NCBI GenBank assembly: GCA_049414625.1
Contig: JBMSAU010000110.1
Location: forward strand, 13,915 to 77,914
Source of the DNA: Thermodesulfobacteriaceae bacterium
GTDB taxonomy: Bacteria; Desulfobacterota; Thermodesulfobacteria; Thermodesulfobacteriales; Thermodesulfobacteriaceae
Reading direction: 5' to 3'
DNA length: 64,000 bases
The notes under the pieces are model-generated. The model was not told the origin of the DNA and ran no database searches. It saw only the letters and a program-made list of their open reading frames with translations. This document shows positions 1,557 through 64,000 of this stretch, one piece after another. Numbering within the stretch: the stretch's first letter is position 1; every line of letters starts with the position of its first letter. Position numbers and translations under genes: made by a program.

Positions 1557-2441
1557 TTACTGTATGAAGATGTTGAAAAAATGTTGTATAGGTTCAAATG
1601 TAATCTCATTTTGATTTCCACATTCCTGACACGTAAACATATACTTTAAATTAATTCTTTCCTGACGATAAGGTTCAATAGCTTTGTTGAGTTTTCTTGT
1701 TATGATTTTGACTAGACTTTCAGGTAAATCTCTTAATACAGATACGTTTCCACTTGTAGCATTATACATTAGTTTAATTTTCTCCTGAGGTCCAGTTTCA
1801 AATATATATAGACTGTGAACATACTCAAAATTTGTAAAGGGAGCATTTATTACATCCTCAATATTTATACAAGCCAATGGGAAACCAACTCTTATTCTAA
1901 TATCTAGATTTTCCACATTTATATTTATATCTGTTGGTTCAAGACTCTTTTCTGGTAATTCAAAAATCAGTGGATAGATAGGTTTCTCTATCTCAAATTG
2001 CTCTCTTAGGTTTTTTATATGTTCAAGTATGTCAATATTGGGATCGTTGAATAAATTCAAATCATATGTGAGCACAAAATTATTTTCACTGTTGCATTTG
2101 GAACAATATTCCTTCACTTCAATAACAGTTAATGTTGCTAGCAACTCAATTATCGGTAGTATGAGATAATGTTTTTCTTCTAGTGTGATTTTTTGACTAA
2201 CTTGATCATACTCTTCTACACAATTCTCAACATAATTATCTATGATTTTATACAGGAACTTTATTCTCTCTAGACTTTTTTCTTCCTTATCTACATTACC
2301 AGCTGTTTGCAATGCTAAAAGATTGTTCATAATATTTATTCTTTGTTTTGCTAGTGGTTCTTTTACTGTTACGTATTGATTACTTTGAGGTAGATAAACT
2401 CTGATTCTCTTGCGAAGCTCTTCAAACTTACTCTTTTGCAT
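1557..2441 (-). CDS. hypothetical zinc-ribbon protein (CSKC...CQEC)
   Basis: The ORF track extends to a TTG at 2477. The first ATG is at 2439-2441 (MQKSKFEEL...). Two CxxC pairs are present. Confidence 0.55.
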   Translation of the reverse strand: MQKSKFEELRKRIRVYLPQSNQYVTVKEPLAKQRINIMNNLLALQTAGNVDKEEKSLERIKFLYKIIDNYVENCVEEYDQVSQKITLEEKHYLILPIIELLATLTVIEVKEYCSKCNSENNFVLTYDLNLFNDPNIDILEHIKNLREQFEIEKPIYPLIFELPEKSLEPTDININVENLDIRIRVGFPLACINIEDVINAPFTNFEYVHSLYIFETGPQEKIKLMYNATSGNVSVLRDLPESLVKIITRKLNKAIEPYRQERINLKYMFTCQECGNQNEITFEPIQHFFNIFIQ

Positions 2442-2534
2442 GTTTGGTATTGCTTTGTATTGTATAAAAAATAGCAAATATTTATTATGAAGGACAAGAA
2501 GAAGAAGAAGAAAGGCGGAAAAAAGTAATCAATG

Positions 2535-3029
2535 CTATATAACCATAATAGTTCTATGACTAATCAATTTTGATAGTATAACCTCGTATCTTGTAATGCG
2601 AATATGATAATTTTTATTCAATGTTGTAATATAGTCTTTAATTTTTTGTTCACTACACAAAACAATTATTGAATCTGTGGTCATATCTTTAATCTCCGTT
2701 TGATCAAAATAATCTACTCTCAATATTCTTTTGTTTATTTCTGCTATATAGTTTGTTTTGAATTTTTTGTGAAATTCTATCATCAGTGATTTCTTATCTC
2801 TGCTAGACGTGATACCAAAATCACTACTCAAAATGTCATTGTATTGATCTGATTTAATGAAGTCAACTAACCTATCAAACTTTCTAACATTTGCTGATAA
2901 ATATCTCATAGTTTGAAAGAAGCCATCAATTAAATCTATCTCAAATAGGTAGGGATCTTTAAATACATACACGGATGGTAAAATACCATTATCGCGGAAT
3001 ATATGTTTAATCAATGTATCTGATAGCAT
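2535..3029 (-). CDS. hypothetical protein
   Basis: ORF track entry. One-mismatch motif CTAAACT-N7-ATG lies upstream. Confidence 0.6.
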   Translation of the reverse strand: MLSDTLIKHIFRDNGILPSVYVFKDPYLFEIDLIDGFFQTMRYLSANVRKFDRLVDFIKSDQYNDILSSDFGITSSRDKKSLMIEFHKKFKTNYIAEINKRILRVDYFDQTEIKDMTTDSIIVLCSEQKIKDYITTLNKNYHIRITRYEVILSKLISHRTIMVI

Positions 3030-3074
3030 ATAACTAAGTTTAGATATGTTGTATTTTAAAGCTAAAATTTAACC

Positions 3075-4643
3075 ATGATGTTTGTTAGCCTACAGTTCAA
3101 GCTTGAACTGAAAAAAGAAGACAAAGAAAAACTCATAAAGCTAATGCGCAAGCAATCCTCTGCTATTCGTGTAGCATACAATATGCTAAAGGAGTTGGAA
3201 AAAGAAGAAACAAAAAACCCTCACTCTCAGATATACCACAGATTAAGACAGTTATTTCCTGAGTTGCCAACAGGATACATTAATTCAGCCATATACAAAG
3301 CTAAACAGTATACTACTGATAAATCAGTGGTATTTGGAGGTAGAAGACTTTTTGAAAAGCTTTGCAAAAACCACCTTACAGGAAAAGCAAGAGAAAAACT
3401 TAAAAAGCAATGGAGAGAACTAAGACAAGGAACATTGATTGCCATAGGTTCAAAACATAAAACCGTACAGGGTAATCAACTACTCAGGTTTGTGGAACTG
3501 GATGGAAAACTACATCTAAGAATTACCACAGGAAAAAGAGAGTTTATCTACGCAAAAGTGTTAAGAGAACCCAGCAATAGCAAAGATAAGTGGATAACTT
3601 TTATGATTATGCTTTTAGAAAGTTGGCAAACAAAAAACTACTTCGCCTACACAGTAGAACTAAAGCTAAGAGATGGAGAAGTTTATGGAAGCGTATCTTT
3701 TGAGATCCCAACACCTGAAGTGAAATACACCAAAGAAAACGGAGTAATAGCAGTAGACACAAACGCATCACCAATTCACTTAGCCATAGCAGAAGTTTCA
3801 AAGACTGGAGAACTGTTAAGCTATCAAACTATTAGCTTACACTACCTTTTAGGACTTTCCAAAAACACCAAGGATCATCAAGAGTGGATATTAGCCCATC
3901 AGATAGTGGATTTGGCTATTGAGAAAGGCAAAGCTATAGCAGTGGAAAATCTAAAGAAACTCAAAAAGGGAACCCGTGGAGATGGCAAGGCTAAACTGAG
4001 AAGAATACTTCACAGCTGGAACGCCAAAAAGTTTTTACAAAAGCTAAAAAGAGTAGCAAAGCTAAAAGGTGTAGAAGTGATAGAGGTCAACCCTGCCTAT
4101 ACCTCAGTTATCGGTATGCTAAAGTATGCACCGCAATTGAACATAGACAAGGATATTGCAGGTGCTTATGTAATAGGAAGAAGGGCACTGGGATTTAAAG
4201 AAGATACACCCGAGAATTACGAAAGACTACTAAAGGACAAGGCATATCTGGAGTTTGCACTGAAAAGATATGAAGAAAGAGAAAAGGAACTTAGAGAAAT
4301 TATAGAGAAGGAAAGCAACAAATACAAGAGAAATGCACTAAAAAGCGAACTAAAGAATGTAGAGAATGCAAAGAACATTTTAGTTAATCTCATACAAAGC
4401 CTTCAGAGTGAGTCAAGCTCCTGTGAGGGAGCCGATGGAAGGAATCCCGAGCAGGGAGAGACTAAAGAAGTCTCTCAAGTAGCTTGGCAAGTTCTGAAGG
4501 TAGCCTTCCTCTTCCCTATCCTTGGAAAGGTCTTACCAAGAGACCTTTCTTCTCTGAAGCCCATATTGGTGGAAGGGATGTGGGATAGGGTGAGGTATTC
4601 TAAAGGGTTAGCTCCTTTAGAGGCTGGAGGGGCGTCCCGATAA
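3075..4643 (+). CDS. tnpB: TnpB-like (IS200/IS605 OrfB family) RuvC nuclease lacking the zinc-ribbon insert
   Basis: The N-terminus SLQFKLELKKEDKEKLIKLMRKQSSAIRVAYN is TnpB-like. RuvC-I is VIAVDTNASP, RuvC-II is AIAVENLKKL, followed by VNPAYTS. RuvC-III is DKDIAGAYVIGRRAL. No CxxC...CxxC lies between NPAYTS and RuvC-III. G+C is visibly higher than in the flanks. Confidence 0.8.
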   Translation: MMFVSLQFKLELKKEDKEKLIKLMRKQSSAIRVAYNMLKELEKEETKNPHSQIYHRLRQLFPELPTGYINSAIYKAKQYTTDKSVVFGGRRLFEKLCKNHLTGKAREKLKKQWRELRQGTLIAIGSKHKTVQGNQLLRFVELDGKLHLRITTGKREFIYAKVLREPSNSKDKWITFMIMLLESWQTKNYFAYTVELKLRDGEVYGSVSFEIPTPEVKYTKENGVIAVDTNASPIHLAIAEVSKTGELLSYQTISLHYLLGLSKNTKDHQEWILAHQIVDLAIEKGKAIAVENLKKLKKGTRGDGKAKLRRILHSWNAKKFLQKLKRVAKLKGVEVIEVNPAYTSVIGMLKYAPQLNIDKDIAGAYVIGRRALGFKEDTPENYERLLKDKAYLEFALKRYEEREKELREIIEKESNKYKRNALKSELKNVENAKNILVNLIQSLQSESSSCEGADGRNPEQGETKEVSQVAWQVLKVAFLFPILGKVLPRDLSSLKPILVEGMWDRVRYSKGLAPLEAGGASR

Positions 4644-4663
4644 GGGATCTTTAGAACAGCCTC
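4399..4663 (+). ncRNA. candidate omega-RNA-like structured RNA overlapping the tnpB 3' end
   Basis: Perfect local stems: 4417-4421/4428-4432, 4456-4462/4470-4476 (7 bp), 4525-4533/4541-4549 (9 bp) and 4620-4626/4657-4663 (7 bp). Long-range pairs: 4401-4408/4552-4559 and 4514-4521/4583-4590. The in-frame translation here is low-complexity and not protein-like. Confidence 0.45.
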
Positions 4664-4675
4664 AGCATCGTAATC

Positions 4676-5932
4676 ATGTTTAAATTGGGTAACTTTGCTT
4701 TTGTTGGTAAAGATGTATCAGACAGATATAAAGATATTGATTACTTTTTGTATCAACAACATCTTGATGTTCTAGCAACATCAAACTGGGTATTATTCAA
4801 ACCATTTTATCAAAAAGATATTAACACTTCTAGATTGCATAATAAAATCAAAACGCTATTAATAGTTATGTTGCTTGTTAATGATCCCGGCTATACAAAT
4901 TTAGTAAATTGGTTCAAAGGTGTAGACGGATTGCAAGTAGCTGATTCAATTCCACATCTTATATTGCGGCATTTCAAAGTTCTTGAACAATATTTAAGGG
5001 AAGGTGTAAATTTTACAGGTGTAACAAAATTTACAACAAACAGTTTCAGTAAACAATTAGCTAGGGCAAAAAACAGACTAACAAATGTAAGTAACTTAGT
5101 GTACTTAGCTAAAGAACTGGATGTCAGTCTGCAGTACAACAATACACTAGAAAATGATGCAGGTATACAATTATTAAATTTTGGTATAGAGATGGCATCG
5201 GGTATTATTACAAATGTAGCAATATTAGCTGCTATTGGTGAATTGCTTGTAGATACTATTAATCAACTGATACCAAATCAAATATTTACTAGCTTAGATA
5301 GTGGTTTAAACAAAATAACTGACATTATTAGAAATTTAGTGTTAGCTAAACAACCAGCTTATCCTCAAGCATATGAGAGTAGTACATACTTACTATCAGT
5401 TAACATTAATATGAGATTTGTTGCAAACAGTTTCAATGAATTTGTTGAGAATATATTAGTACCTCTTATTGGTTTGTATATGATATCTGCTCCTACTTTA
5501 TGGAGTGATTATTGGTCTAATAATGATGATGCTATATCTCAATTTCTTAAATCTGGAACATTTCTAAGCAGATTATTTACTGCTCCACCTTATATGTTTT
5601 CATGTCTAGTTCCAGGACAAGTTTTTATACCAGTAGCCGCAGTTCAAAACATTAGTTTTACTCCATCTAAAGAGACTTTTATTTCAGGTCATCCAAAGTA
5701 TGTTGATGTAAATATGACTGTCATTGATCTCATACCTGTTTTATTGTTTTCATCAACAACAACAGATGGAACACCATCATTCAATCCTCTAGCAGGAGGC
5801 TTCCAAGCTCCAAGTAACTATAGAAAGCGATTCATAGAGGAGTTAATGAAACTTGAGAATGAATTTGAAGTTAAAGAGGATGCTCAAAAAATTTTAGTGT
5901 TAGGTCATCCTATACTTAAAAATATAAAGTAG
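4676..5932 (+). CDS. tail/baseplate-associated protein, short paralogue of 58854-60902 without the M23 domain
   Basis: Shared blocks with 58854-60902: FGKDV near the N-terminus, LVPGQVFIP versus LVPGKIFIP, SKETF..G.PK, LENEF versus LDNEF, and GHPILK. Confidence 0.65.
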   Translation: MFKLGNFAFVGKDVSDRYKDIDYFLYQQHLDVLATSNWVLFKPFYQKDINTSRLHNKIKTLLIVMLLVNDPGYTNLVNWFKGVDGLQVADSIPHLILRHFKVLEQYLREGVNFTGVTKFTTNSFSKQLARAKNRLTNVSNLVYLAKELDVSLQYNNTLENDAGIQLLNFGIEMASGIITNVAILAAIGELLVDTINQLIPNQIFTSLDSGLNKITDIIRNLVLAKQPAYPQAYESSTYLLSVNINMRFVANSFNEFVENILVPLIGLYMISAPTLWSDYWSNNDDAISQFLKSGTFLSRLFTAPPYMFSCLVPGQVFIPVAAVQNISFTPSKETFISGHPKYVDVNMTVIDLIPVLLFSSTTTDGTPSFNPLAGGFQAPSNYRKRFIEELMKLENEFEVKEDAQKILVLGHPILKNIK

Positions 5933-5954
5933 CAACAATACTAAATTTTTTTGT

Positions 5955-45261: not shown

Positions 45262-46941
45262 ATGCTTGGTTTGCTAGAGTTATTGAAACCATCAACATAT
45301 GTGATTGAAGTATCATTCTTCTGTGCATTACAAAATAAAAAGATGCTAGATTTAATCAAAAACATTCTACCCTATTGGAGTATGCTTGCAACTGAGGAGC
45401 AAAAACCTTTATTATCAATGTTAAATACATTTGTGAATAAGGGTATACCAGAACATGATTTCAAACTATCACAGCCATTGGAGTTTTATTACAAACTATT
45501 TGATGTAGCAAATCTCGATGAATTGCAATCAACAATATTGGATAGGTTATATAAAATACAATTTATTGCTAAGGTATATGAGAAGATTCAACTACTCCAG
45601 CATCCAATACATGACTATAATAAAGTTGAAATGCTTGTTAGTGAATTGTTATCTGATCTTAATGAAGTTAGAGATAAAGAGCTAACAGAGAAAATCTTCA
45701 ATGCAAAAGATTTATTAAATGTAACAGAAATATCTGATTTGAAATTGGTTAGTTTGATACCAGAGCTAGATTTAGTATTAGGAGGATTTTATGTTAATAA
45801 TCTTTATCTGTTTGCCGCAGGATTGGGACAGGGTAAATCATTTACATTACTTAACATGGCAGTAGGATTTTCAGTTTTCCTAAAAGCATTTGAAAACTAC
45901 TATAAAGATTGGTATGGTAAAAAACCAGTTGTTTTATACATATCACTGGAAAATACTAGCGTTCAGATCAGGAACAGATTATACACATTACTAAATGATT
46001 GCACATTAACAATACCAAAAGAAAAAAATACTCCTTTGAAACAATTATTCCAAGCTGTGGATAACTTCTATATTATATCTTTATCAGATGAGATAGTGGA
46101 TTATGTTTACATAGAGAATATTGTGTTGTCGATGCAATCAAAAAATATGCATCCAGTTGTCATTGTGTTAGATTATATGGATGAGTTATATGCTCCTGCT
46201 AACATAAGTGAACATAGACATAAGTTAGGTTATAATGCTAGAATGTTAAGAAAGATAGCTATGAATCACAATCTACTAGTTGTATCAGCTACACAGATAA
46301 ACAGAAAAGGCATTGAAGAAGGTAATATATCCATTACACATTTATCAGAATCGATAGAGCATGGTAAAGTAACAGATGCATTGATTGGTTTGGTTCCGGT
46401 AACAATAAACAAAGGTTATGTTATTACAAATCAACCTTTAACCAGAGATATTATTAAAAGCAGTCTAGACAACAAAGCAGATGCAATTGGAATGATAAAT
46501 AGCATGTATCTCAAAGTATTAAAAAATAGACCAAATCTATTAACAGGATTTGGGTATGCAATTAGTAATCAAAGTTTAACAGGATTTAGATCTCTCATAT
46601 ATGGATTGAATTATGAAATCTCAATCTATCTTGTTCCAAGTTTACATTCATATTTAGGAGATGATTATATAACTACAAACTATGATATATTGCATAGCAG
46701 TGTTACAAATAGAATAGCACCATTCGTAAAAAATCTTGATGTTAAGGATTACAGTAAATATCAATACGGATTAGAGTTAATATCAAATCTACTTGGTATT
46801 GATATAAAACAAATAAATGTAAATAATGAAAACATAGAAAATGACTTTGTAGTAAGTAATATCAATCAAAACATAGATGCACTTGATATCATAGATGATT
46901 TTGAAGCATTCGAACAAAAAAGTTTAGATTTAGATATATAG
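45262..46941 (+). CDS. DnaB/RecA-fold replicative helicase
   Basis: Walker A is AAGLGQGKSF. Walker B-like is VIVLDYMDE. SATQINRKG is also present. Exact CTAAATT-N7-ATG lies upstream. Confidence 0.7.
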   Translation: MLGLLELLKPSTYVIEVSFFCALQNKKMLDLIKNILPYWSMLATEEQKPLLSMLNTFVNKGIPEHDFKLSQPLEFYYKLFDVANLDELQSTILDRLYKIQFIAKVYEKIQLLQHPIHDYNKVEMLVSELLSDLNEVRDKELTEKIFNAKDLLNVTEISDLKLVSLIPELDLVLGGFYVNNLYLFAAGLGQGKSFTLLNMAVGFSVFLKAFENYYKDWYGKKPVVLYISLENTSVQIRNRLYTLLNDCTLTIPKEKNTPLKQLFQAVDNFYIISLSDEIVDYVYIENIVLSMQSKNMHPVVIVLDYMDELYAPANISEHRHKLGYNARMLRKIAMNHNLLVVSATQINRKGIEEGNISITHLSESIEHGKVTDALIGLVPVTINKGYVITNQPLTRDIIKSSLDNKADAIGMINSMYLKVLKNRPNLLTGFGYAISNQSLTGFRSLIYGLNYEISIYLVPSLHSYLGDDYITTNYDILHSSVTNRIAPFVKNLDVKDYSKYQYGLELISNLLGIDIKQINVNNENIENDFVVSNINQNIDALDIIDDFEAFEQKSLDLDI

Positions 46942-47008
46942 TTTTTTTGCTATGGAATTATAAAATGTCATAGGAAAAAAGAAAGTTCAAGCAAAGATTT
47001 CACATAGC

Positions 47009-47036
47009 TTGAAAAGGCTTAAGTTAAGCTTAAATT
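47009..47036 (+). promoter_or_regulatory. candidate sigma70-type promoter (TTGAAA, 16-nt spacer, TAAATT) with an embedded palindrome GCTTAAGTTAAGC
   Basis: -35 at 47009-47014 and -10 at 47031-47036. The palindrome lies at 47017-47029. The ATG at 47044 is only 7 nt after the -10. Confidence 0.35.
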
Positions 47037-47043
47037 CATAGAC

Positions 47044-47790
47044 ATGGATACTCTGGAAATTATAGGACAAAGGCTAAAACAAGCACGAGAAACTGTAGGC
47101 TACACGCCAGAAGAGGTCTCACAAAAGCTTGGAATTAGCACGGATGAAATTTTGCTTTTTGAAAGCGGAAGGAAAAGCCCGCCACTTAGCCTTTTGAGAA
47201 AACTTGCCAAACTCTATGGAGTCTTTGATAGCTACTTCTATGGGATAGATAAACCCGAAGGAACCGCCTTTACCCTACTTCTTGATAAAGCCAAAAAACT
47301 CTCTTTTCCTCCTGAAACCATAAGCCAGCTTCACCGCTTTGTTTTTCTGTGTAGGGAGATAGTAAAGCTTAGGCAAAAGCTTGGCATTCCAAAGCCTGAA
47401 ATTCCTCGCCATATAGATAACCAAGAGAACTTGGGAGAACTCTTGGAGAATATGGGTATCCCAGTAATCAGGATGTCCTTAGGCAAAGAACTTTCTTCCG
47501 CCATGGTTTGTGATAAAAGGTTTGGTGCGTTTATCCTCGTGAATTCCGATTGTCCTGACCAAAACCAGCTTATTGCCCATGAGTATGCCCGCATCCTTCA
47601 GGGAGAAAAAATTCATCTAAATGCTAAAGATTGCCCAAAAGCCATGCCACTACAAAGCAGAACTTCACGACCTGTGTCCAAGGTTCTTTGGGAACTTGTT
47701 TTGACTGCGGTAAAACACGGACTGATAAGCACCAGTTATGCATCCGATTTGCTTGAAATAAGTCCTATGGAAATTGAAGAGTTTTCATAA
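47044..47790 (+). CDS. XRE-family HTH regulator fused to an ImmA/IrrE (DUF955)-like domain with a degenerate metal site
   Basis: IGQRLKQARETVGYTPEEVSQKLGISTDEILLFESGRKSP is a Cro/C1 HTH. The C-terminal GAFILVNSD...LIAHEYARIL aligns with ...HELGH..., but the second His is replaced by Arg. Confidence 0.8.
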   Translation: MDTLEIIGQRLKQARETVGYTPEEVSQKLGISTDEILLFESGRKSPPLSLLRKLAKLYGVFDSYFYGIDKPEGTAFTLLLDKAKKLSFPPETISQLHRFVFLCREIVKLRQKLGIPKPEIPRHIDNQENLGELLENMGIPVIRMSLGKELSSAMVCDKRFGAFILVNSDCPDQNQLIAHEYARILQGEKIHLNAKDCPKAMPLQSRTSRPVSKVLWELVLTAVKHGLISTSYASDLLEISPMEIEEFS

Positions 47791-47791
47791 A

Positions 47792-47828
47792 GCCCGCACG
47801 GGCTTCTTATTGGTGCGGGCAATTTTTC
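47792..47828 (+). terminator. rho-independent terminator
   Basis: GCCCGCAC (47792-47799) pairs with GTGCGGGC (47813-47820), followed by AATTTTT. Confidence 0.6.
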
Positions 47829-47980
47829 CTGATGAATTTTGATAAGACTGTAAGCTGATGGTAAGCTGTTAGTTCTATAGCATCGCCCTCCAGATCTATC
47901 ACCCTAACTGGTCCCGTCCCCTCCCTCTCAATGAAAAAAAAGGGAGGGCGGAGAGGGTTTGTTCTATGTTTCTGGTCTCA

Positions 47981-48427
47981 TCAGTCTTCATAGTAGACTC
48001 TGTAGTTATCATCCTCCTGATAACTCCTTAGCAGGCTTTCTGCTTCGTCCTTTGTCAACAGTTCTGCATATTCTCCCTCTTTCAAGGTTGACAGTTTTCC
48101 GATAGGTTTGCCCTTGTCAAAGATTACCACGTATCTCAACTCACTCGCGCTAAAAGCATCACGGGTATTCTCATGGGTCGCCAAGTAGATGTGTGGAGTA
48201 ATCTGATACAACCGAATGATGTCGTGATACCATCCGCCATCATTATGGCGTACATTACCAAATCTCCTCCAGCAATCACACCTCTCGTAGATCGTAACGA
48301 TAGGCGTTAGACTGTTCAAAGATTCCATCCACTGCTCTTCCGTATGATACACGTATAAGCTAATGTCTCCAAGGCGGGAACTCCACCAGAGTTCCCTATC
48401 GTCTGGGTAGTATGCGGTTTGTTGCAT
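47981..48427 (-). CDS. hypothetical acidic protein (island gene)
   Basis: ORF track entry. AGGAGG lies 9 nt upstream of the ATG. CCTAAATT lies 35 nt upstream of the ATG. Confidence 0.65.
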   Translation of the reverse strand: MQQTAYYPDDRELWWSSRLGDISLYVYHTEEQWMESLNSLTPIVTIYERCDCWRRFGNVRHNDGGWYHDIIRLYQITPHIYLATHENTRDAFSASELRYVVIFDKGKPIGKLSTLKEGEYAELLTKDEAESLLRSYQEDDNYRVYYED

Positions 48428-48590
48428 GTTTATTACCTCCTGTGGGTTTTATTTGTTTATTAAATTTAGGTAGATTTTTATTCTGATCTTAAAGTGATTT
48501 TTTTGTTATTGTTTTTTACTAAATAGATAACATGCTAGTTGAGAGTCTCTTATAGCTTCTCTTCATTCCTTTATCTCCTTATTTATAAAT

Positions 48591-48610
48591 GGAGCCGTAG
48601 GAGAGGCTCC
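48591..48610 (-). terminator. hairpin GGAGCC-N8-GGCTCC followed by an A/U-rich tail on the minus strand
   Basis: It lies directly downstream of the stop of 48625-49086. Confidence 0.4.
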
Positions 48611-48624
48611 TGAGGAAGTAAAAG

Positions 48625-49086
48625 TCAATAGACTTTTATCTTTACTGGATTTAAAGCTGTCATTAATCTTGGAAGTAGTTCCTCTAAGTCTTCTTGACTG
48701 CCTACGAAGATATAACCTCCATCAAGCTCTAATTTTGCAATCGTCTCAAGTTCTTGCTTATCCCAAACATACACTGCAAAGTATTCCTCTTCAAATCCAA
48801 CAAAAGCATGGACTATATACAAATCACACATCACAACCCGATAAACATCTATATGGTAGAGAATGTCCGACCCTTCTACTCTAAAAAGTATCTCAAGAAC
48901 CAATGCTGCTCCTTCATTTGCGAAATGATTTTCTTTTGGGTTTTCTTCCACTTCCACCTCATAATCATTAATAGAGTGCACAATCTCAAAATGCTTTCCA
49001 TACGGTGGAACAAACGGAACAAGCACTTCCTTCGTTCTTGCAAAACCTAAGTCTCTTAGTATTTTGTCAAGTTTTTCTTTCGTCAT
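48625..49086 (-). CDS. hypothetical acidic protein (island gene)
   Basis: The ATG at 49084-49086 is preceded by AAGAAGGAGGTGAAGCT. The track extends upstream to 49152. Confidence 0.6.
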   Translation of the reverse strand: MTKEKLDKILRDLGFARTKEVLVPFVPPYGKHFEIVHSINDYEVEVEENPKENHFANEGAALVLEILFRVEGSDILYHIDVYRVVMCDLYIVHAFVGFEEEYFAVYVWDKQELETIAKLELDGGYIFVGSQEDLEELLPRLMTALNPVKIKVY

Positions 49087-49160
49087 AGCTTCACCTCCTT
49101 CTTTAGTGTTTTCGGTTATGTTCTTAAGTTCTTCCATCTTCATGGCAAACACCTCCTTTG

Positions 49161-49619
49161 TTATATTCTCACAACGGGTAGGTTATTCAGTTCTTCCTCA
49201 GCTCTTTCTCTTGCTTCTTCCCACAAAGCGTCCTCTTCATCTTCTCCGTAATAATCACTTAACCTCTCTGCCCATTCTTCTGTAAGCCTCTCATACGCAT
49301 ATTCGTAGGTCTCATACACATTGTTATACCAAAACAGATTCTTCCTACCATACTCGTCGAAATACGGCGGAAACTCAATCTCACGACCTCCAAAATCGTC
49401 AGGAATGAAAACCTTTTTCCCTTCCAATTTCTCAGACAAGAAAACACTCTTTCCTACTCCAGGTGGGATACTCCAAAACTCTTCGTAATCCTCCTCATCT
49501 GTAAATTCTACAATGAGAAAGGTATGAATACGATTAGCCGCATCAATTGTACTCCAGATCACTCTTAGATCCCTCATAGCTTCTCCTCCTTCTTGGGTTA
49601 GCTGTTGCTTCTTCCTCAT
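49161..49619 (-). CDS. hypothetical acidic, aromatic-rich protein (island gene)
   Basis: Two Shine-Dalgarno-preceded ATGs are possible: 49617-49619 (TAGGAGGTGAAGAC) and 49575-49577 (AAGAAGGAGGAGAAGCT). The track extends to 49679. Confidence 0.6.
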   Translation of the reverse strand: MRKKQQLTQEGGEAMRDLRVIWSTIDAANRIHTFLIVEFTDEEDYEEFWSIPPGVGKSVFLSEKLEGKKVFIPDDFGGREIEFPPYFDEYGRKNLFWYNNVYETYEYAYERLTEEWAERLSDYYGEDEEDALWEEARERAEEELNNLPVVRI

Positions 49620-49800
49620 GTCTTCACCTCCTAAAGTTTTATTTATATATTTAATTTTATACAACTTTATAAAAATCAAGAGGGCATATTATGATTTGCG
49701 TCATGTCCTCATTCCCTTTGAATATGCGTGTAGAACAGAGAACTCAGTGTTAGGTCTTTGTATCTTTTCCAGATAAGCTTTAGAAAGTCCCTTATTTGAC

Positions 49801-49860
49801 GGGACACCCTTCACAGTATTGAAAATCAACCTGTTCAGAAGGGTAGGGTGTCCCATTTTT
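49801..49860 (+). terminator. long hairpin GGGACACCCTTC...GAAGGGTAGGGTGTCCC followed by T7 (plus-strand orientation)
   Basis: Stems 49801-49812 and 49838-49854; T-run at 49856-49862. Confidence 0.45.
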
Positions 49861-49937
49861 TTGTCAAATTATAGGAATACAATAAGTTCAATAACAAAAA
49901 AAGAGGGAGGAAGAGGGCAATTATGAAGAGCTTCTAA

Positions 49938-51674
49938 TTACCTTTGAACGATAAGTCTACCTACTACATTAGGATAGATTACAGATACTCCGAATCTATG
50001 AACAGCAGTCATTGCTTGACCAAGAGTATTTGCAGGATAAGGTATCATATGGGTTGCATAAGGTGCATATATTGCAGTAGAGAAGAATTCTTGTTTGGAT
50101 TTGAGTACAAGTAAGTTCCTACCAACAGGAAGTATAGGTGTAGGCAATACCTTTATCCATTCTTCAGATCCATCTTTGCTTCTGGTGTATATCTTGAATG
50201 GGTCTGCTTTCGTTACAGGGTCGGATACCCACTTACCTATGTTAACAAGTAGTGAAGCATCTTCAACATTCATCACAAGTATGGGTTCTACTTCGGGAAC
50301 AGGTGTATTCCTGAGTATCTTACCAAGCAGGTTAGATATTGCATAAGGGAAATGAGTCATAACGTACATGCCTGGTCCCCAACTGTAAGCAGCAAGAGCA
50401 GCAGCAGTCATATCTACAGATTCTTCTATGTTATGAACAAGTGATGCATTATACAAGTTCATTAGAAGGAATGCATCAGTGTTAAGTGCAATTATAGCAG
50501 ATAGTATGCTACTTACTTCGCCGAGTATGTCGAGATTGAAGAGAACTTGAGCATCAAAAGCCATTTCGGGAGATACAAGTATTGTGCTTTCAAGCCTGTT
50601 TTCAGCAAGAGTTTGTCTTGCAAGTTCAAGTCTGAGCTTCCTAGCAGGATCTCTCGCTTCATAGGCTACTCTTGCATATATCTCTATACCTTGAACTTCA
50701 GGAGCAGTTCCACCAGTTACTATAACAGTTATAGTGAAATCACCAGATTTGAAGTCTACTCTACCAGTTACATTAACAGTGTAGGTATTGGCACTAATAG
50801 TTACAGTCCCAGCTCCGGTTATAGCACCAGATGATTCAATATTGGAAGATACATTTATTGTTCCAGATGTCGCACCATCAGTTATACGAACAGCTATTAC
50901 TCTAAAATCAGGTGTTACTCTAAGCTTATTGTCAGGAGCAACAGTCGCAGGAGGCAACAAGTTAGCATCACGTAGAATGTTATACACATTACCTCTTATT
51001 ATCTCTTCTGCAGAAGGAGTTGTAGCGGGAACAAATACACCCTGCCCAGGAGCTGTTCCGTAATAGCCAAGAGAATCTCCACTGAGAAGTCTACCAGTTG
51101 TCATGTCTACTGATAGATAGGATGAGAATGGATAAGGATTTGTAGAGTTAGTTAGTTCTTCATAAAACCTGAAGAAGTAAACATAGGCACCTGGAGCAGA
51201 CATATTCCTGACATCATATACTTGCGTTGCAACAAGTCTTGGATACATAAACCTTATCAGTGGTGCCAAATACATAAAGTATGGTATCACATTAGCAGAT
51301 GTATTTTCTGTAGCTATAGCCCTAAGACTATTTTCATACAAAACTTTAATGGCTTTGGATAGTGAATATACTTCTGCCTCTGATAGATTACCTTGTTCTG
51401 CAACTATATCGGTTACTATTGCATTGGATATTAAATCAATTACAGTCTTATCACCTTGTAAAGCTCTTTTTGCCAGTTCTGATATTTTATCTACAAATTC
51501 TGATGGATTTTTAGATGCATTAACCTTAGTTATATCCGAATAAAATTCTTTTACTATTTTCTTGGCATCTTCAACATTCTTATTTGCCATTTCCATTGCT
51601 AGACTGTAAATTCTTTTCGTAGATATAATTGAGTCAGATGGGTAAAATCTTGATAGTCTTACGTCTTTATCCAT
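49938..51674 (-). CDS. probable major capsid protein (T4 gp23 / HK97-fold-like)
   Basis: A/G/T/V-rich composition and higher G+C than neighbours, as in highly expressed genes. Spine-helix-like segment ARKLRLELARQTLAENRLES...EMAFDAQVLFNLDILGEVSSIL. A beta-rich insertion is also present. The call rests on family resemblance only. Confidence 0.55.
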   Translation of the reverse strand: MDKDVRLSRFYPSDSIISTKRIYSLAMEMANKNVEDAKKIVKEFYSDITKVNASKNPSEFVDKISELAKRALQGDKTVIDLISNAIVTDIVAEQGNLSEAEVYSLSKAIKVLYENSLRAIATENTSANVIPYFMYLAPLIRFMYPRLVATQVYDVRNMSAPGAYVYFFRFYEELTNSTNPYPFSSYLSVDMTTGRLLSGDSLGYYGTAPGQGVFVPATTPSAEEIIRGNVYNILRDANLLPPATVAPDNKLRVTPDFRVIAVRITDGATSGTINVSSNIESSGAITGAGTVTISANTYTVNVTGRVDFKSGDFTITVIVTGGTAPEVQGIEIYARVAYEARDPARKLRLELARQTLAENRLESTILVSPEMAFDAQVLFNLDILGEVSSILSAIIALNTDAFLLMNLYNASLVHNIEESVDMTAAALAAYSWGPGMYVMTHFPYAISNLLGKILRNTPVPEVEPILVMNVEDASLLVNIGKWVSDPVTKADPFKIYTRSKDGSEEWIKVLPTPILPVGRNLLVLKSKQEFFSTAIYAPYATHMIPYPANTLGQAMTAVHRFGVSVIYPNVVGRLIVQR

Positions 51675-53365: not shown

Positions 53366-53992
53366 TTATAGTAATATATCATCTGAATCTGATGATACAT
53401 TTACAGTCACATCAGATAGATCCAAATCCAATTCATCTTCTATTGTATCTGATTTATCAATTTCGGATATTTTCTTTTTAGATGGTGCTTCTGTTGTATA
53501 TTTATTGTATAGTTCCCAGAATCTTGTAGCATCTCTTTCAATTCTTTTTAATGTGACACCTTTTCTCATTAGTTCTTCAATTGCATTAATAACCCTATCA
53601 ATCTCCTCTTTGACATTTTCCAATACTTCATCATTTATCTCATTGTCCATTTTTGTTCCAATTTCTCTTAGATATAATGCATGATTTTCTTTTATCACTG
53701 CTATGTATGGAGATGTTTTCAATCCTGTAGCTGATGTCAATCTGTTTGAATAAATCAATGCTACTGTATATCCATTCGCATCATACAATTTGGTTCCTAG
53801 TAGCAAATTCTCTCTTTTCTTAATCACAATTACGTGATCTTTGGATATTGGCTCAATTATTTTGAATTTTTTATTTGCTGGAAATCCGACTAAATTGCTA
53901 CCTACTAACGTACAATAATATATTTGTTCATCATATTTAATTGGTTTGAATACACTTGATAATTTTTCTATGGAGATTACTCTGACCTTCAT
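53366..53992 (-). CDS. hypothetical protein
   Basis: The ATG at 53990-53992 is chosen by the exact CTAAATT-N7-ATG (the track extends to a TTG at 54010). Confidence 0.6.
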   Translation of the reverse strand: MKVRVISIEKLSSVFKPIKYDEQIYYCTLVGSNLVGFPANKKFKIIEPISKDHVIVIKKRENLLLGTKLYDANGYTVALIYSNRLTSATGLKTSPYIAVIKENHALYLREIGTKMDNEINDEVLENVKEEIDRVINAIEELMRKGVTLKRIERDATRFWELYNKYTTEAPSKKKISEIDKSDTIEDELDLDLSDVTVNVSSDSDDILL

Positions 53993-54022
53993 GTCTATAA
54001 ATTTAGACAAGTTGTAAAAAAC

Positions 54023-55180
54023 TCAAAACCAATCAATTTCATTTGAAGTATCTTTAACAGGAGATCTACCCAAATACATAAACAAATACAAAACTAAATG
54101 CTTTGCTATGTTTGAATACGTTTGCAATGAATACTTACTTAATATATCCTCTCTAATCTTAGGTATTGATATTGTTACACTATATAATTTATTTATCTGA
54201 TTCATATTGGTAGCATCCAATGGAAATCCGACTACACTTATGATTTTATTTACAATCATTTTTAATTCATCATAACTCAATTTTTGTAATTGTTGAATGT
54301 ATTGTTTGAATGTTTGTTTTGATATTTTGTTTCCGAGCATCTCGATTATAGTATCAACTAAATCGTCTATTGGTTCAGGTTCCATTTTGAAGTTAATTAT
54401 TGCATCATGATAATACCTACTGTAATCCCGTTCAGCAATCTCATCTTTAGTAATTTTCTTCTCTTTTGCTATATGTATTAGATTGTCTTTCAATCTGTTA
54501 GCATAGTTATTAACTCTTGCTCGCAAATAACCCGTCCACACATTATGTATTTTTTTCGGATTGGATTCTCTATCAACTAATATTAATTGAGCCTTTCTTT
54601 CTGCAATTGACTCTAATAATCCTGATATGGATGAGAAATTGCTTGGATGTAATAAGTTAGATCTGGGTAATAGTCTTCTGGCTTGTTCAAGATCATGCTT
54701 GTTAAGTATTACAACAGACTTAGTTACTTGAACTATAAACATGATAGCAGAAAACATAAAGTAAAGATTACGAAGTATGGCTAGCTTATCTATAACTGGA
54801 TTGTTATCACAATCTACTAACGTAACAACATCAGCATGTAAGACAATAGCCGCAAGATGCCATCTGTTCATATAGTAAATTGGATTAGATAAACTTGGAT
54901 CAAGAGTTTTATGAAGTTTGAATACTAATTCCTTTAATTCCTTTTGAACTATGCTGGTATTCGTATGCATCTTATCAAACAATAGAGGACGAAATTTTTC
55001 TACACTGATAACATTTAAGTTGTCAACGTATGGTCTTATTTGAGTTGTAATTCTATCGGTTGTACGATACAAAGTTAGCATATAATCTTCAAAATTTTGA
55101 AAACCAAAATAGCGCACAATATGCTCAATTAGTTCTTTTTGTTGATTATTTAACCAGTGAACATATTTACAGTTCGTCAT
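54023..55180 (-). CDS. hypothetical protein
   Basis: ORF track entry. CTAAATT-N8-ATG lies upstream, within the palindrome AGCTAAATTTAGCT. Confidence 0.6.
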   Translation of the reverse strand: MTNCKYVHWLNNQQKELIEHIVRYFGFQNFEDYMLTLYRTTDRITTQIRPYVDNLNVISVEKFRPLLFDKMHTNTSIVQKELKELVFKLHKTLDPSLSNPIYYMNRWHLAAIVLHADVVTLVDCDNNPVIDKLAILRNLYFMFSAIMFIVQVTKSVVILNKHDLEQARRLLPRSNLLHPSNFSSISGLLESIAERKAQLILVDRESNPKKIHNVWTGYLRARVNNYANRLKDNLIHIAKEKKITKDEIAERDYSRYYHDAIINFKMEPEPIDDLVDTIIEMLGNKISKQTFKQYIQQLQKLSYDELKMIVNKIISVVGFPLDATNMNQINKLYSVTISIPKIREDILSKYSLQTYSNIAKHLVLYLFMYLGRSPVKDTSNEIDWF

Positions 55181-61381: not shown

Positions 61382-62437
61382 ATGCTAGATATTAAGAGAA
61401 TATATGCCACAGATAATTCAGAGATTACAAACTTATTCAAAAAAGTTCCTCTAAAAAAAGATGAAACTTCTGTTATGAAACTTTACCAACTAACTTGTAA
61501 AGGTTCTGCTTCCGTTAACTATACAGAAACAGAAAAAAATAAATTAATTAGGATACCCATATTTACTTTATCTGTTAACAAAACAATTATTTACATTCCA
61601 AAGTATGATTTATATAACGTTGACATTGTAACTCCTGTTAAAGAGTTAGAAGAATATTTTGGAAAGTTTTATGCCAAGTTTTTAGCAACTCTATCAGATC
61701 AAGGAAAAATAGTTATAGTTAGAGATATCGTTTTACCCAGATTTATAGCCGTTCAATGTCCTACGTATGTAGCTGATAGATTTGTCTTGAATTCACTGCC
61801 CAAAATTGTTAGTGATTTATATATCATATTTAAAAGTAAAGATGAAGTCACTGTAGATGCTTTGTTATCTCCGATTAGTAAGATTAAATTGATGCTTGAT
61901 ATGTATAACAATATCAACAACAGGTTTGATATATTAGTAGAGTATTTATCCAGCAATGTTGAAATATTTTTGGAACAGGTCTTGGAGATGTTTAAATACT
62001 TTCTATTTTCACAGAAAGGACTAAATGTTAGTCAAATCAAAGATGAAGTTCATGCTAAAATAACACTTTACATTTTACATCACTTTATATCTCCATTAAT
62101 GTTTCCGAATTTGACTGATCAACAAAGAGAACAAATCATAAACAAGTTTTCAAAACGATTGAACTATAAATTTGTTTACAATCCAAATTACATACCAACA
62201 CTGGGAAATCTGTTCTCATCAATATCCGAGTTAGATAAAGAGTTATACTACTATCAAGATGTAACAAGAGTATTTGCTCGTGCCTATAAAATACATCCGT
62301 ATTTGCTATGGACTTTAAGTAATATTTATGGTATGTTGCATACTCTTATTGCGAATCAATTCAACATACAAATAATGAAGATACCTTTGTTATCAAGGTT
62401 TATTACCTTACAACTTCCTCTAAAAAGAGGAGAGTAA
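61382..62437 (+). CDS. hypothetical protein
   Basis: The first ATG is at 61382 (the track starts earlier, at 61355). Confidence 0.55.
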   Translation: MLDIKRIYATDNSEITNLFKKVPLKKDETSVMKLYQLTCKGSASVNYTETEKNKLIRIPIFTLSVNKTIIYIPKYDLYNVDIVTPVKELEEYFGKFYAKFLATLSDQGKIVIVRDIVLPRFIAVQCPTYVADRFVLNSLPKIVSDLYIIFKSKDEVTVDALLSPISKIKLMLDMYNNINNRFDILVEYLSSNVEIFLEQVLEMFKYFLFSQKGLNVSQIKDEVHAKITLYILHHFISPLMFPNLTDQQREQIINKFSKRLNYKFVYNPNYIPTLGNLFSSISELDKELYYYQDVTRVFARAYKIHPYLLWTLSNIYGMLHTLIANQFNIQIMKIPLLSRFITLQLPLKRGE

Positions 62438-62439
62438 AA

Positions 62440-63096
62440 ATGATTTACATAACTTATAAATATAACATGAGACAATCTCCTGCAACTAAATCATTAAAAC
62501 ACTTCGAGCAAAGAATATTTGATCGCATACATCAGATCGAGAAAGGATTACTTGAATTACAAATATCTCCTTTGTTTAAGTTTAATAAAAATGAGTTTAG
62601 ATGGCTCTTGTTTTTGGATGTAGAAACCATCACTAAAATTAGAGAACCAAATAAAGGATTAACATTAAAAACTTTCACAGGTAGAGGCTTACATGTTTTC
62701 AATTTTGTTGCTTACAAGATTCGTGATATTATTAAAACTAGACAAATGTTAAAACAAAACGAATGCATAAAAAATAAGATTGATATAGCAACTACATTAA
62801 GAGTAACACCAATGAGATTTTTAGGTTGCTTTTCAACAAAACATAAAATATGGCTACATCCTTATTTAGTTGAACATGGTGATTACGAACAAATAAAATA
62901 TCTTGCTTCCAAACCACCGAGTGTGTATTTGCAAACAAAATTTGCAAAACAAGTTTGTGATTATTTATCCATACCATATAACAAACACGATTTAGATACG
63001 TATGCTAGAATAATAGTTGAACCTTTCAAAAAAATTATTAAAAGCGAAAGTAACATTTTGGATATTGTAAATCATATGCTAAACTGTGTACAATAA
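62440..63096 (+). CDS. hypothetical protein
   Basis: ORF track entry. AGAGGAGAG lies 5 nt upstream of the ATG (Shine-Dalgarno-like coupling). Confidence 0.6.
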   Translation: MIYITYKYNMRQSPATKSLKHFEQRIFDRIHQIEKGLLELQISPLFKFNKNEFRWLLFLDVETITKIREPNKGLTLKTFTGRGLHVFNFVAYKIRDIIKTRQMLKQNECIKNKIDIATTLRVTPMRFLGCFSTKHKIWLHPYLVEHGDYEQIKYLASKPPSVYLQTKFAKQVCDYLSIPYNKHDLDTYARIIVEPFKKIIKSESNILDIVNHMLNCVQ

Positions 63097-63578: not shown

Positions 63579-63830
63579 ATGAGGAAAGTCAAAGTTCCAA
63601 AAAAAGAAATTTCCAATTTAGATCAATTAATACTCGATTTCATGAATCTACCGTCAATTGACAGAATGAGAAGAATTATGTATTGCATGTATAATGTAAA
63701 TACATATGATGAAGATACAATAAAAATTGATCCTTATTTGTTACCGATGTTTAGAAAATTAAAATCTATGTATCCAACGGTTAGGGATGAAGTCTTATTA
63801 AGAGCAACGATGCTAAATTTATCAAAATGA
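63579..63830 (+). CDS. hypothetical small protein
   Basis: The ATG at 63579 is chosen by the exact CTAAATT-N7-ATG (the track starts at a TTG at 63543). Confidence 0.55.
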   Translation: MRKVKVPKKEISNLDQLILDFMNLPSIDRMRRIMYCMYNVNTYDEDTIKIDPYLLPMFRKLKSMYPTVRDEVLLRATMLNLSK

Positions 63831-64000
63831 AAGAGTTCTTGAGTATAGCAAAACAATTAGTAGATTTAACAAAAAATGATTCATTTGCAAATCATTTTAC
63901 TGAATCTGCAGAGAGAATATCAAAATACTGGATGGAGATTATGCAATTTGCTATTAATAGAAAAAATTTTGATTCTGATGTAGAATGTATTAAGCATCTG
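63827..64000 (+). CDS. hypothetical protein, partial (runs off the window)
   Basis: Not in the ORF track. The ATG at 63827 overlaps the upstream stop as ATGA and follows an exact CTAAATT-N7. The frame stays open for 58 codons to the window end (MKEFLSIAKQLVDLTKND...). Confidence 0.5.
   Translation, partial: MKEFLSIAKQLVDLTKNDSFANHFTESAERISKYWMEIMQFAINRKNFDSDVECIKHL

Follow-up and report, generated by a model that had tools for sequence, protein, structure and literature searches.

In the 64,000-nucleotide stretch analysed here (contig JBMSAU010000110.1, positions 13,915 to 77,914; hereafter the window), an island of about 2.9 kb lies between the convergent genes for a DnaB-like helicase and a Gp23-like capsid protein. 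Four reading frames are present between these two genes: A, encoding an XRE-family helix-turn-helix (HTH) protein, on the plus strand, and B, C and D, encoding small acidic proteins, on the minus strand (Table 1). The island is an insertion found in only part of a population of hot-spring phages of ~30% G+C that have this capsid and helicase, and its sequence is a mosaic copied from the end region of unrelated phages, which have ~45% G+C and are integrated in bacterial chromosomes. Its composition, the empty sites of relatives and its own translation signals strongly support that it is foreign DNA in the carrier phage. We consider it probable that the island is a mini-prophage fragment with conflict-type accessory genes. 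As an accessory island, or moron, it belongs to a known kind, of which the documented capture route, from a prophage end, provides a new example. The contigs compared here, which are either relatives at the island site or donor-type phages, carry labels of the form L001.

The mean G+C content of the window is 30.6%, and 300-bp windows of the backbone (outside 47000–51300) have a mean of 0.299 with a standard deviation of 0.031. At ~47000 the G+C content steps from 0.23–0.30 to 0.40–0.46. The G+C content at third codon positions (GC3) is 0.382 for A, 0.523 for B, 0.299 for C and 0.396 for D, in all four cases higher than the backbone value of 0.231±0.033 (55 genes). Windowed G+C and GC3 therefore bear out the foreign composition that a preliminary description, made from the letters alone, had ascribed to this region. 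That description had the island reach the capsid stop at 49938; it does start just past the helicase stop, but it ends at 49878. The elevated G+C extends through the capsid gene to ~51300 and arises there from first and second codon positions only; the capsid GC3 of 0.237 is a backbone value, and the G+C content of the gene is equal in relatives that lack the island. The capsid gene was therefore rejected as a part of the island, and the right border is placed at 49878. No tRNA or Rfam family was found within the island.

Nine distinct related contigs, one of them a 129-kb IMG/VR contig, have an empty site in which 66–76 bp separate the helicase stop from the capsid stop; their helicase and capsid proteins are ~97% identical to those of the window. 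The spacer of the empty site is an AT-rich inverted repeat between the convergent genes (I7), and in the nine relatives it reads TTTTTTTGCTATGGAAT followed directly by ACAATAAGTTCAATAACAAAAAAAGAGGG, with GGAAT in a single copy. The window carries 2,920 extra bases in the loop of this repeat, flanked by an exact 5-bp duplication of GGAAT. The inserted DNA comprises 46959–49873, or 46959–49878 when counted with the right GGAAT copy. The comparison with related phages, by which the preliminary description had proposed to define the borders, thus shows an island that is absent from nine of ~15 related contigs and is not conserved in all relatives.

To the base, the right junction of the island is the terminus where donor DNA meets five other flanks. 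The end module that precedes this junction is 85–91% identical to L033, L008, L028, L030 and L005, and the DNA beyond the donor terminus, T(A/T)ATTTGACAAAAAAATGGGACAC, differs from context to context. The neighbour is tRNA-Ser(tga) in L008, L028, L030 and L033 and the end of a beta-propeller-repeat gene in L005; in L036 the terminus interrupts hisD after ...APEH (Histidinol_dh Pfam E=8e-124). Donors with a TerL-type terminase are thus inserted in hisD and by the beta-propeller gene, and those of the myovirus type always beside tRNA-Ser. The DNA flanking the donor ends has a G+C content of 0.51–0.56. Two or three copies of TTTGAC...GGGACAC, two of them inverted, are present at the genuine donor end only. 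The interrupted bacterial hisD of L036 (1–957, G+C 0.51) also offers a handle on the donor-phage host. At the left junction, the terminus of the insert is the reverse complement of ATG ACA TTT TAT AA, the first codons of the donor gene in the prohead-protease position, which precedes the scaffold and capsid genes of the donors. The left 52 bases are 84–93% identical to L033 5575–5627, L008 3852–3800, L028 and L030. When the left and right termini are compared in inverted orientation, 9/12 bases match (TATAAAATGTCA vs TATAATTTGACA).

Homologues of B, C and D occur exclusively in hot-spring metagenomes, most of them in phage contigs of 42–45% G+C. Two main donor types were found: contigs of a myovirus type (L008, L028–L030 and L033), which encode sheath, tube and capsid proteins, and contigs with a convergent terminase module (L003–L005, L031 and L036). 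In the donor phages D and B stand with other ORFans in an array of genes that all point the same way, with B directly after D in L008 and L030. A homologue of A lies at the same position in the myovirus-type L033 (83% amino-acid and 84% nucleotide identity), and the XRE gene together with its terminator hairpin matches L033 5961–6788 at 84% nucleotide identity. The 80-nt end module of L033 (7202–7285) is situated ~400 bp downstream of the A homologue and is directly followed by tRNA-Ser(tga). Read along the minus strand, the order in the island is end module, 173-aa remnant, D, C, B, 68-aa remnant, XRE in antisense and protease start. The order in L008 is end module, 133, 272, D, B, 133, 68, 72 and protease, and that in L033 is end module, 65, XRE in antisense, 72 and protease. 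The donor cassettes adjoin variable regions with D12 methyltransferase or type IV-B-like Csf genes. In L003, a small phage contig of 44% G+C with a B homologue, such a region (2425–5591) encodes Csf1, Csf3 and a CysH-like 3'-phosphoadenosine-5'-phosphosulfate reductase; this Csf cluster is type IV-B CRISPR-Cas-like and lies in the variable region adjoining the cassette array.

The same ends enclose at least five further cargo states in other contigs. The XRE gene is present alone in L001, which is from the same sample as the window-type contigs L009; a 684-bp remnant in L018 covers the C-terminal third of an XRE allele that has diverged; L025 has one unrelated 211-aa gene with its own Shine-Dalgarno (SD) sequence; L023 has a B-like gene of 30% identity in which the C-D-C...HNDGG-x-YH motif is kept; and L011 and L012 carry D and C inverted behind a new left junction, with C truncated in L011. 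The small genes are therefore found without the XRE gene at this site (L011, L012 and L025) as well as in the donor phages, and the module is dispensable for the carrier phage and strain-variable. Repeated homologous exchange between the island and variable prophages that have these ends in common would account for the strain variants and for the breaks that assemblies show at this position.

Related cassettes are also inserted elsewhere. A second cassette hotspot is found in L015 (2049–5799, corresponding to window ~53986–54072), where a 3.75-kb array holds five ORFan genes, among them a B-like (55%) and a C-like (42%) gene with a lowered G+C content of 0.33–0.38. Each of these cassettes is preceded by a duplicated backbone promoter/start segment of ~60–100 bp (...TCTAAATTTATAGACATGAAGGAGGTGAAGCNATG), the segment ...TCTAAATTTATAGACATGAAGGAGGTG being present in 3–4 copies before successive cassettes. 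The junctions use ATGAAGG/AAGGAGG microhomology, and the duplicated segments are variable in length. The hotspot also carries a 65-bp piece of window 62418–62482. A third insertion site is seen in L027, where a D-family gene (183–674, 82%) adjoins a segment (754–949) that matches window 63805–64000; this contig was binned as 'Candidatus Aenigmatarchaeota', probably through mis-binning. A C homologue lies among the early genes of a PolA-type phage, and four or more unrelated phage lineages have the cassette families in common.

B, C and D are real genes under purifying selection, with a nonsynonymous diversity (pN) of 0.20–0.27 vs a saturated synonymous value (pS) of 0.85–0.92 for B and a dN/dS ratio of 0.06–0.13 for D. 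They agree with the preliminary description of three unrelated small proteins, acidic, rich in aromatic residues (F+W+Y content 12–17%), without a recognised family and convergent to the XRE gene. None of the three matches a Pfam, PHROG, PADLOC or NCBIfam model, and profile searches against PDB sequences gave nothing significant. The B family comprises 15 clusters, all metagenomic (alignment A1), with Glu-48, Cys-50, Cys-52, His-61, Asn-62, Gly-64, Gly-65, Tyr-67 and His-68 invariant; the C-x-C/H/H pattern of these residues suggests a possible metal site. The C family has 24 clusters, and its alignment (A2) has 37 invariant columns; only six representative clusters were found among 1.84 billion proteins. 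The D family has 50 clusters, and their alignment sets the conserved start of D. AlphaFold2 models of D and B have predicted local distance difference test (pLDDT) scores of 93 and 81, respectively. Foldseek comparison of both models with PDB, and of the D model with BFVD, yielded TM-scores of no more than 0.28 and no fold match. The structure prediction proposed in the preliminary description therefore gave no housekeeping structural homologue for B or D. No kinship among B, C and D was detected by hhalign. An apparent 71% match between B and D results from a single chimeric sequence, P0015, a B-family member that ends in a D-family C-terminal tail (...EEDALWEEARQKAEEELKNLPVVGI) and is either a recombinant of adjacent cassettes or an assembly chimera. 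B, C and D represent three new ORFan families, two of which, B and D, are without a fold match.

The HTH domain of A is solidly assigned (HTH_31, E=7e-11, 42.7 bits with a cut-off of 27; HTH_3, 38.4 bits with a cut-off of 23). The C-terminal region matches Peptidase_M78 at E=0.011 and 16 bits, below the cut-off of 22, and the position of HExxH reads HEYAR in A and HEYTR in the L033 homologue. Of the fusion of an XRE and an ImmA/IrrE-like domain that was first described, the HTH and the HEYAR sequence are thus present, but the ImmA/IrrE assignment is sub-threshold. The closest solved relative is ImmR of ICEBs1 (7t8i, E=1e-7, HTH only), and comparison with phage records gave matches at the HTH level only. 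A resembles ImmR/ImmA and Xre-COG2856 systems in having an XRE HTH nearest to ImmR followed by a weakly M78/ImmA-like region; unlike these systems, its domains are fused in a short protein of 248 aa, HExxH is lost and there is no operon partner. We propose that A is an ImmR-like regulator from the donor with an inactive ImmA-like sensor domain. Upstream of A lies CTTAAATT, a near copy of the upstream motif of the backbone genes, inside a perfect palindrome that is a candidate autoregulatory operator of A. Neither the GGAGA sequence formerly assigned as an SD site before 47044 nor any other SD is present there. A would probably repress its own promoter at this palindrome; because the palindrome is unique in the window, with no second copy upstream of D or B, only autoregulation can be put forward for A. 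The terminator hairpin behind the XRE gene also follows the L033 homologue and is present in L023. Just upstream of D, several donors encode a 253-aa protein with an intact HE(V/I)GH (L004 2922–3683, L008 842–1660, L030 437–1195 and L036 1621–2382) that has no Pfam or PHROG match; it was rejected as a relative of the C-terminal domain of A, as BLASTP was not significant and no Pfam match was found.

The translation signals of B, C and D set them apart from the backbone. AGGAGG-type SD sequences precede the starts at 48427, 49086, 49577 and 49619, lying 6–9 nt before the starts of B, C and D, whereas in 53 of the 57 backbone genes none of the candidate starts has an SD 4-mer nearby. The contrast between strong SD sites in the island and most genes of the window, as originally described, thus stands for the four minus-strand starts but not for A. 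The backbone genes instead carry CTAAATTT ~8–19 nt before the ATG (34 copies vs 11.2±3.5 expected; examples at 5941, 12182, 12775, 19710 on the minus strand, 22626 on the minus strand, 32581 and 45248). This motif looks like a -10-type promoter element right before the reading frame, which would give leaderless or near-leaderless mRNAs. Such mRNAs with elements of this type are known for Deinococcus-Thermus (PMC12340547). A scan for promoter-like sequences gave 16 matches vs 14.6±4.0 expected, which does not exceed chance. Unrelated cassette genes (B, C and D of the window and genes of L004, L008, L011, L012, L015, L025, L028, L030 and L034) share the start context (A)AGGAGGTGAAGCNATG, and many cassettes share a leader of ~60–90 nt that is translated as '...TPAGRVSQQ..GGEAM'. 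This leader is likely a portable recombination or translation module, and read-through of it causes gene callers to predict false N-terminal extensions.

Three G+C-rich hairpins had been described as terminators of the island. All three are present, and two are more stable than shuffled sequences (z=-3.1 for 47792–47820 and -4.4 for 49794–49868), but the hairpin at 48591–48610 is weak (z=-2.3). The hairpin at 49801–49860 is formed by two inverted copies of the donor end motif. In the spacer between B and C, TTTTTTTGTTATTG at 48498–48511 is the perfect complement of the right arm of the inverted repeat at 49889–49902 (I8). This copy might mark a second, nested insertion or be due to chance; the nested reading is given little weight because parts of the spacer are donor-derived.

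With regard to the route of arrival, we suggest a transposition-like event during replication of the AT-rich phage in a lysogen. Its two ends would have been the true prophage end and an internal sequence that resembles it (9/12 bases), and the product would have been a mini-prophage. Resident prophages would later have exchanged cargo with the island by homologous recombination at the ends that they share. Phage Mu inserts near-randomly, generates 5-bp target duplications, has repeated transposase-binding end sites and carries a repressor gene next to its left end. The case resembles a mini-Mu in the exact 5-bp duplication round the island and in a repressor-like gene that is transcribed toward the end; the varied flanks of the donor end, which include the inside of hisD, and its repeated motifs may be further points of likeness. 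The case differs from a mini-Mu in that no DDE transposase or MuB-like gene was found in the incomplete donor DNA, in that the four myovirus-type donor contigs all lie beside tRNA-Ser, which looks site-specific, and in that one island end is an internal look-alike and not a true end. Unlike in Mu, the head protease and capsid genes come next to the donor end.

Several points weigh against the mini-prophage reading. Pfam and PHROG scans of the available, incomplete donor DNA found no transposase or integrase among the donor genes, so that the 5-bp duplication and the 9/12 match of the termini are the sole basis of the transposition step. Only one end was seen for each donor prophage. The truncation of C in L011, the XRE remnant in L018 and the absence of the island from most relatives indicate that it may give the carrier little benefit. 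The operator assigned to A is a single palindrome, unlike the palindromes around the L033 homologue. Finally, microhomology-mediated illegitimate recombination could yield the same junctions and is a serious alternative. Here the DNA would have arrived by plain illegitimate recombination at a fragile terminator hairpin, with GGAAT as a fill-in or microhomology. The lack of a transposase in the donor DNA searched agrees with such an event, as do the left breakpoint inside a donor gene and the L015 cassettes, which are clearly joined through microhomology. However, the target duplication is exact at 5 bp, one junction matches to the base a terminus that meets five other flanks, and the termini match in inverted orientation, which leaves this route possible rather than probable.

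In terms of function, B, C and D appear to be independently translated, stably folded small acidic proteins drawn from a shared cassette pool. Most likely they would bind host or rival-phage proteins, in counter-defence or inter-phage competition, and would not be replication enzymes or virion parts. This conflict role is favoured because the genes are dispensable, shared by lineages, near Csf or methyltransferase regions, small, acidic and folded. An anti-CRISPR (acr) operon with an associated regulator (aca), in which B, C and D inhibit host immunity and the XRE protein is an Aca-like repressor, is a narrower version that we find doubtful. Like acr-aca loci, the island has small acidic ORFan proteins (pI 4.3–4.9) by an HTH gene in a variable phage region; each protein has its own strong SD, the site is a strain-variable hotspot, the same families are found in several unrelated phage lineages of the same springs, their donor neighbours are the variable regions with D12 methyltransferase or Csf genes, and an HTH gene is adjacent both in the window and in L005. 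Unlike acr-aca loci, the XRE gene is convergent to B, C and D and has its own terminator, so that they form separate transcription units; no copy of its palindrome precedes D or B, and the XRE gene and the small genes occur independently. These features are not those of the classic acr/aca architecture. B, C and D match no known family, B and D no fold, and there is no homology to known Acr or Aca proteins. To our knowledge, a 248-aa two-domain protein is also unlike known Aca proteins. Of the anti-defence or moron layout first suggested for the island, the foreign, moron-like locus is upheld by the empty site, the foreign GC3 and the SD sites of the genes, but the classic acr/aca layout is not.

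The island could also be functionless passenger DNA from a prophage that is being lost, with the purifying selection reflecting life in the donor only. Consistent with this are the nine of ~15 related contigs without the island, the decay seen in the truncated C, the XRE remnant and the two gene remnants within the island, and the different start-site architecture of the carrier's own genes. Against it, four intact reading frames are kept, and the shared ends enclose several distinct, intact versions of the cargo that persist in different springs and samples. In addition, the ameliorated B- and C-family copies in L015 stand behind duplicated backbone promoters, which suggests long residence and expression in the carrier lineage. 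We therefore regard a purely passive island as unlikely. The Xre/COG2856 toxin-antitoxin or exclusion module offered as an alternative in the preliminary description, resembling RosmerTA (a Zn-peptidase antitoxin with a toxin of unknown function; bioRxiv 10.1101/2022.05.11.491447), in which the XRE protein would be the antitoxin and one small protein the toxin, protecting the carrier or excluding rivals, is highly improbable: PADLOC RmrA models (E=1e-11 to 1e-10) and the NCBIfam 'spr1629 family repressor/antitoxin' (E=2e-8) do match A, but the matches are essentially to the HTH (two RmrA models reach residue ~130) and amount to 33 bits vs a family cut-off of 335, A has 248 aa vs the 360–400 aa of the RmrA profiles, the peptidase motif is degenerate with a sub-threshold Peptidase_M78 match, there is no co-directional two-gene operon, and partners are not obligate, as B, C and D are widespread without the XRE gene and the latter is alone in L001.

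Morons, hyperplastic regions and modular shuffling mediated by promoter-stem-loop (PeSL) elements have been described in T4-type phages (PMC2839356, PMC4122927). As in these cases, the island consists of non-essential ORFans between genes that are adjacent in close relatives, with a different composition and own, in part putative, expression signals, and insertions and deletions at repeated promoter/terminator sequences are seen in the duplicated backbone promoter segments of L015. Unlike the shuffling in T4-type phages, the island comes in its entirety from a single defined region of a different phage type; it ends in a discrete element terminus and is flanked by a 5-bp target duplication, and no composite motif of a sigma-70 promoter and a stem-loop was demonstrated.

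Table 1. Features of the island and its borders (window coordinates)
Feature	Position	Strand	Description
DnaB-like helicase gene	45262–46941	+	Left neighbour of the island
Left GGAAT target copy	46954–46958		Loop of the backbone inverted repeat TTTTTTTGCTATGGAA / TTCAATAACAAAAAAA; empty sites read TTTTTTTGCTATGGAAT followed by ACAATAAGTTC
Left end of insert	46959–47010	-	Terminus TATAAAATGTCA, then donor intergenic sequence
Perfect palindrome	47017–47029		GCTTAAGTTAAGC; 14 nt before the start of A, overlapping CTTAAATT; occurs once in the 64-kb window
Gene A	47044–47790	+	248-aa XRE-family HTH protein; C-terminal domain weakly ImmA/IrrE-like, degenerate metal site HEYAR
Terminator hairpin of XRE gene	47792–47827	+	G+C-rich GCCCGCAC...GTGCGGGC, then AATTTTT; z=-3.05
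Remnant of 68–69-aa donor gene	47810–47950	-	Gene follows B in donors; residues ~24–69, without start codon; tblastn 76% to L003 2204–2413
Gene B	47981–48427	-	148 aa, pI 4.91, mostly beta strand; AGGAGG upstream; motifs DDRELWW and E-x-C-D-C...H-N-D-G-G-x-Y-H
AT-rich spacer	48428–48624	-	Decayed cassette start 48550–48583; CTAAATTT copy 48462–48469 (minus); weak hairpin 48591–48610 after C
Gene C	48625–49086	-	153 aa, pI 4.68; AAGGAGGTGAAGCT upstream
Gene D	49161–49619	-	138 aa from ATG 49577, pI 4.27, 17% aromatic; in-frame leader from 49619 with second SD
Remnant of 173-aa donor gene	49700–49791	-	C-terminal part, upstream of D; tblastn 71% to L004 1901–2422, residues 134–166; blastn 89%
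Donor-phage end module	49794–49873		Two inverted TTTGAC..GGGACAC copies forming a long hairpin, then T7, terminus GTCAAATTATA
Right GGAAT target copy	49874–49878		Backbone starts again here (ACAATAAGTTC...)
Gp23-like capsid gene	49938–51674	-	Right neighbour, convergent with the helicase gene

Outside the island, the capsid protein had no tblastn match in 50,697 phage records. Between 51810 and 51993 the window has a G+C-rich insertion (0.46–0.49) of ~184 bp that is absent from relatives and lies exactly at the stop of a 468-aa gene, where ...GAC TAA becomes ...GAG TGA. The inserted DNA matches both the left-end region and the tnpB 3' end (right end) of an ISCsa5-like IS200/IS605 element of Thermus phage YS40_Isch, and it looks like a miniature, transposase-less derivative; it has a stable fold (z=-2.8) and a weak RAGATH-18 match below threshold. 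At 3075–4643 (plus strand) a 522-aa TnpB-related protein is encoded (TIGR01766, E=1.5e-16, above the cut-off; weak Cas12f-like TNB match). The GC3 of this gene, 0.359, is the highest of the backbone set, and the DNA is G+C-rich to ~4800; this is probably a second foreign element of the IS605 family in the phage.

The case shows, base by base, a lytic-type phage acquiring accessory genes and then exchanging them with unrelated temperate hot-spring phages. Taken together, and put forward tentatively, B, C and D might be new families of thermophile-phage counter-defence or conflict proteins, carried as SD-led cassettes and delivered to a large lytic phage of leaderless type by mini-prophage transposition. 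If true, temperate phages would pass genes to lytic ones by a route so far undescribed in hot-spring viruses. The SD-led cargo, set against carrier genes that stand right behind a -10-like motif, provides a natural test of foreign-gene expression in such phages, and B, C and D are good candidates for putative thermostable inhibitors of host immunity.

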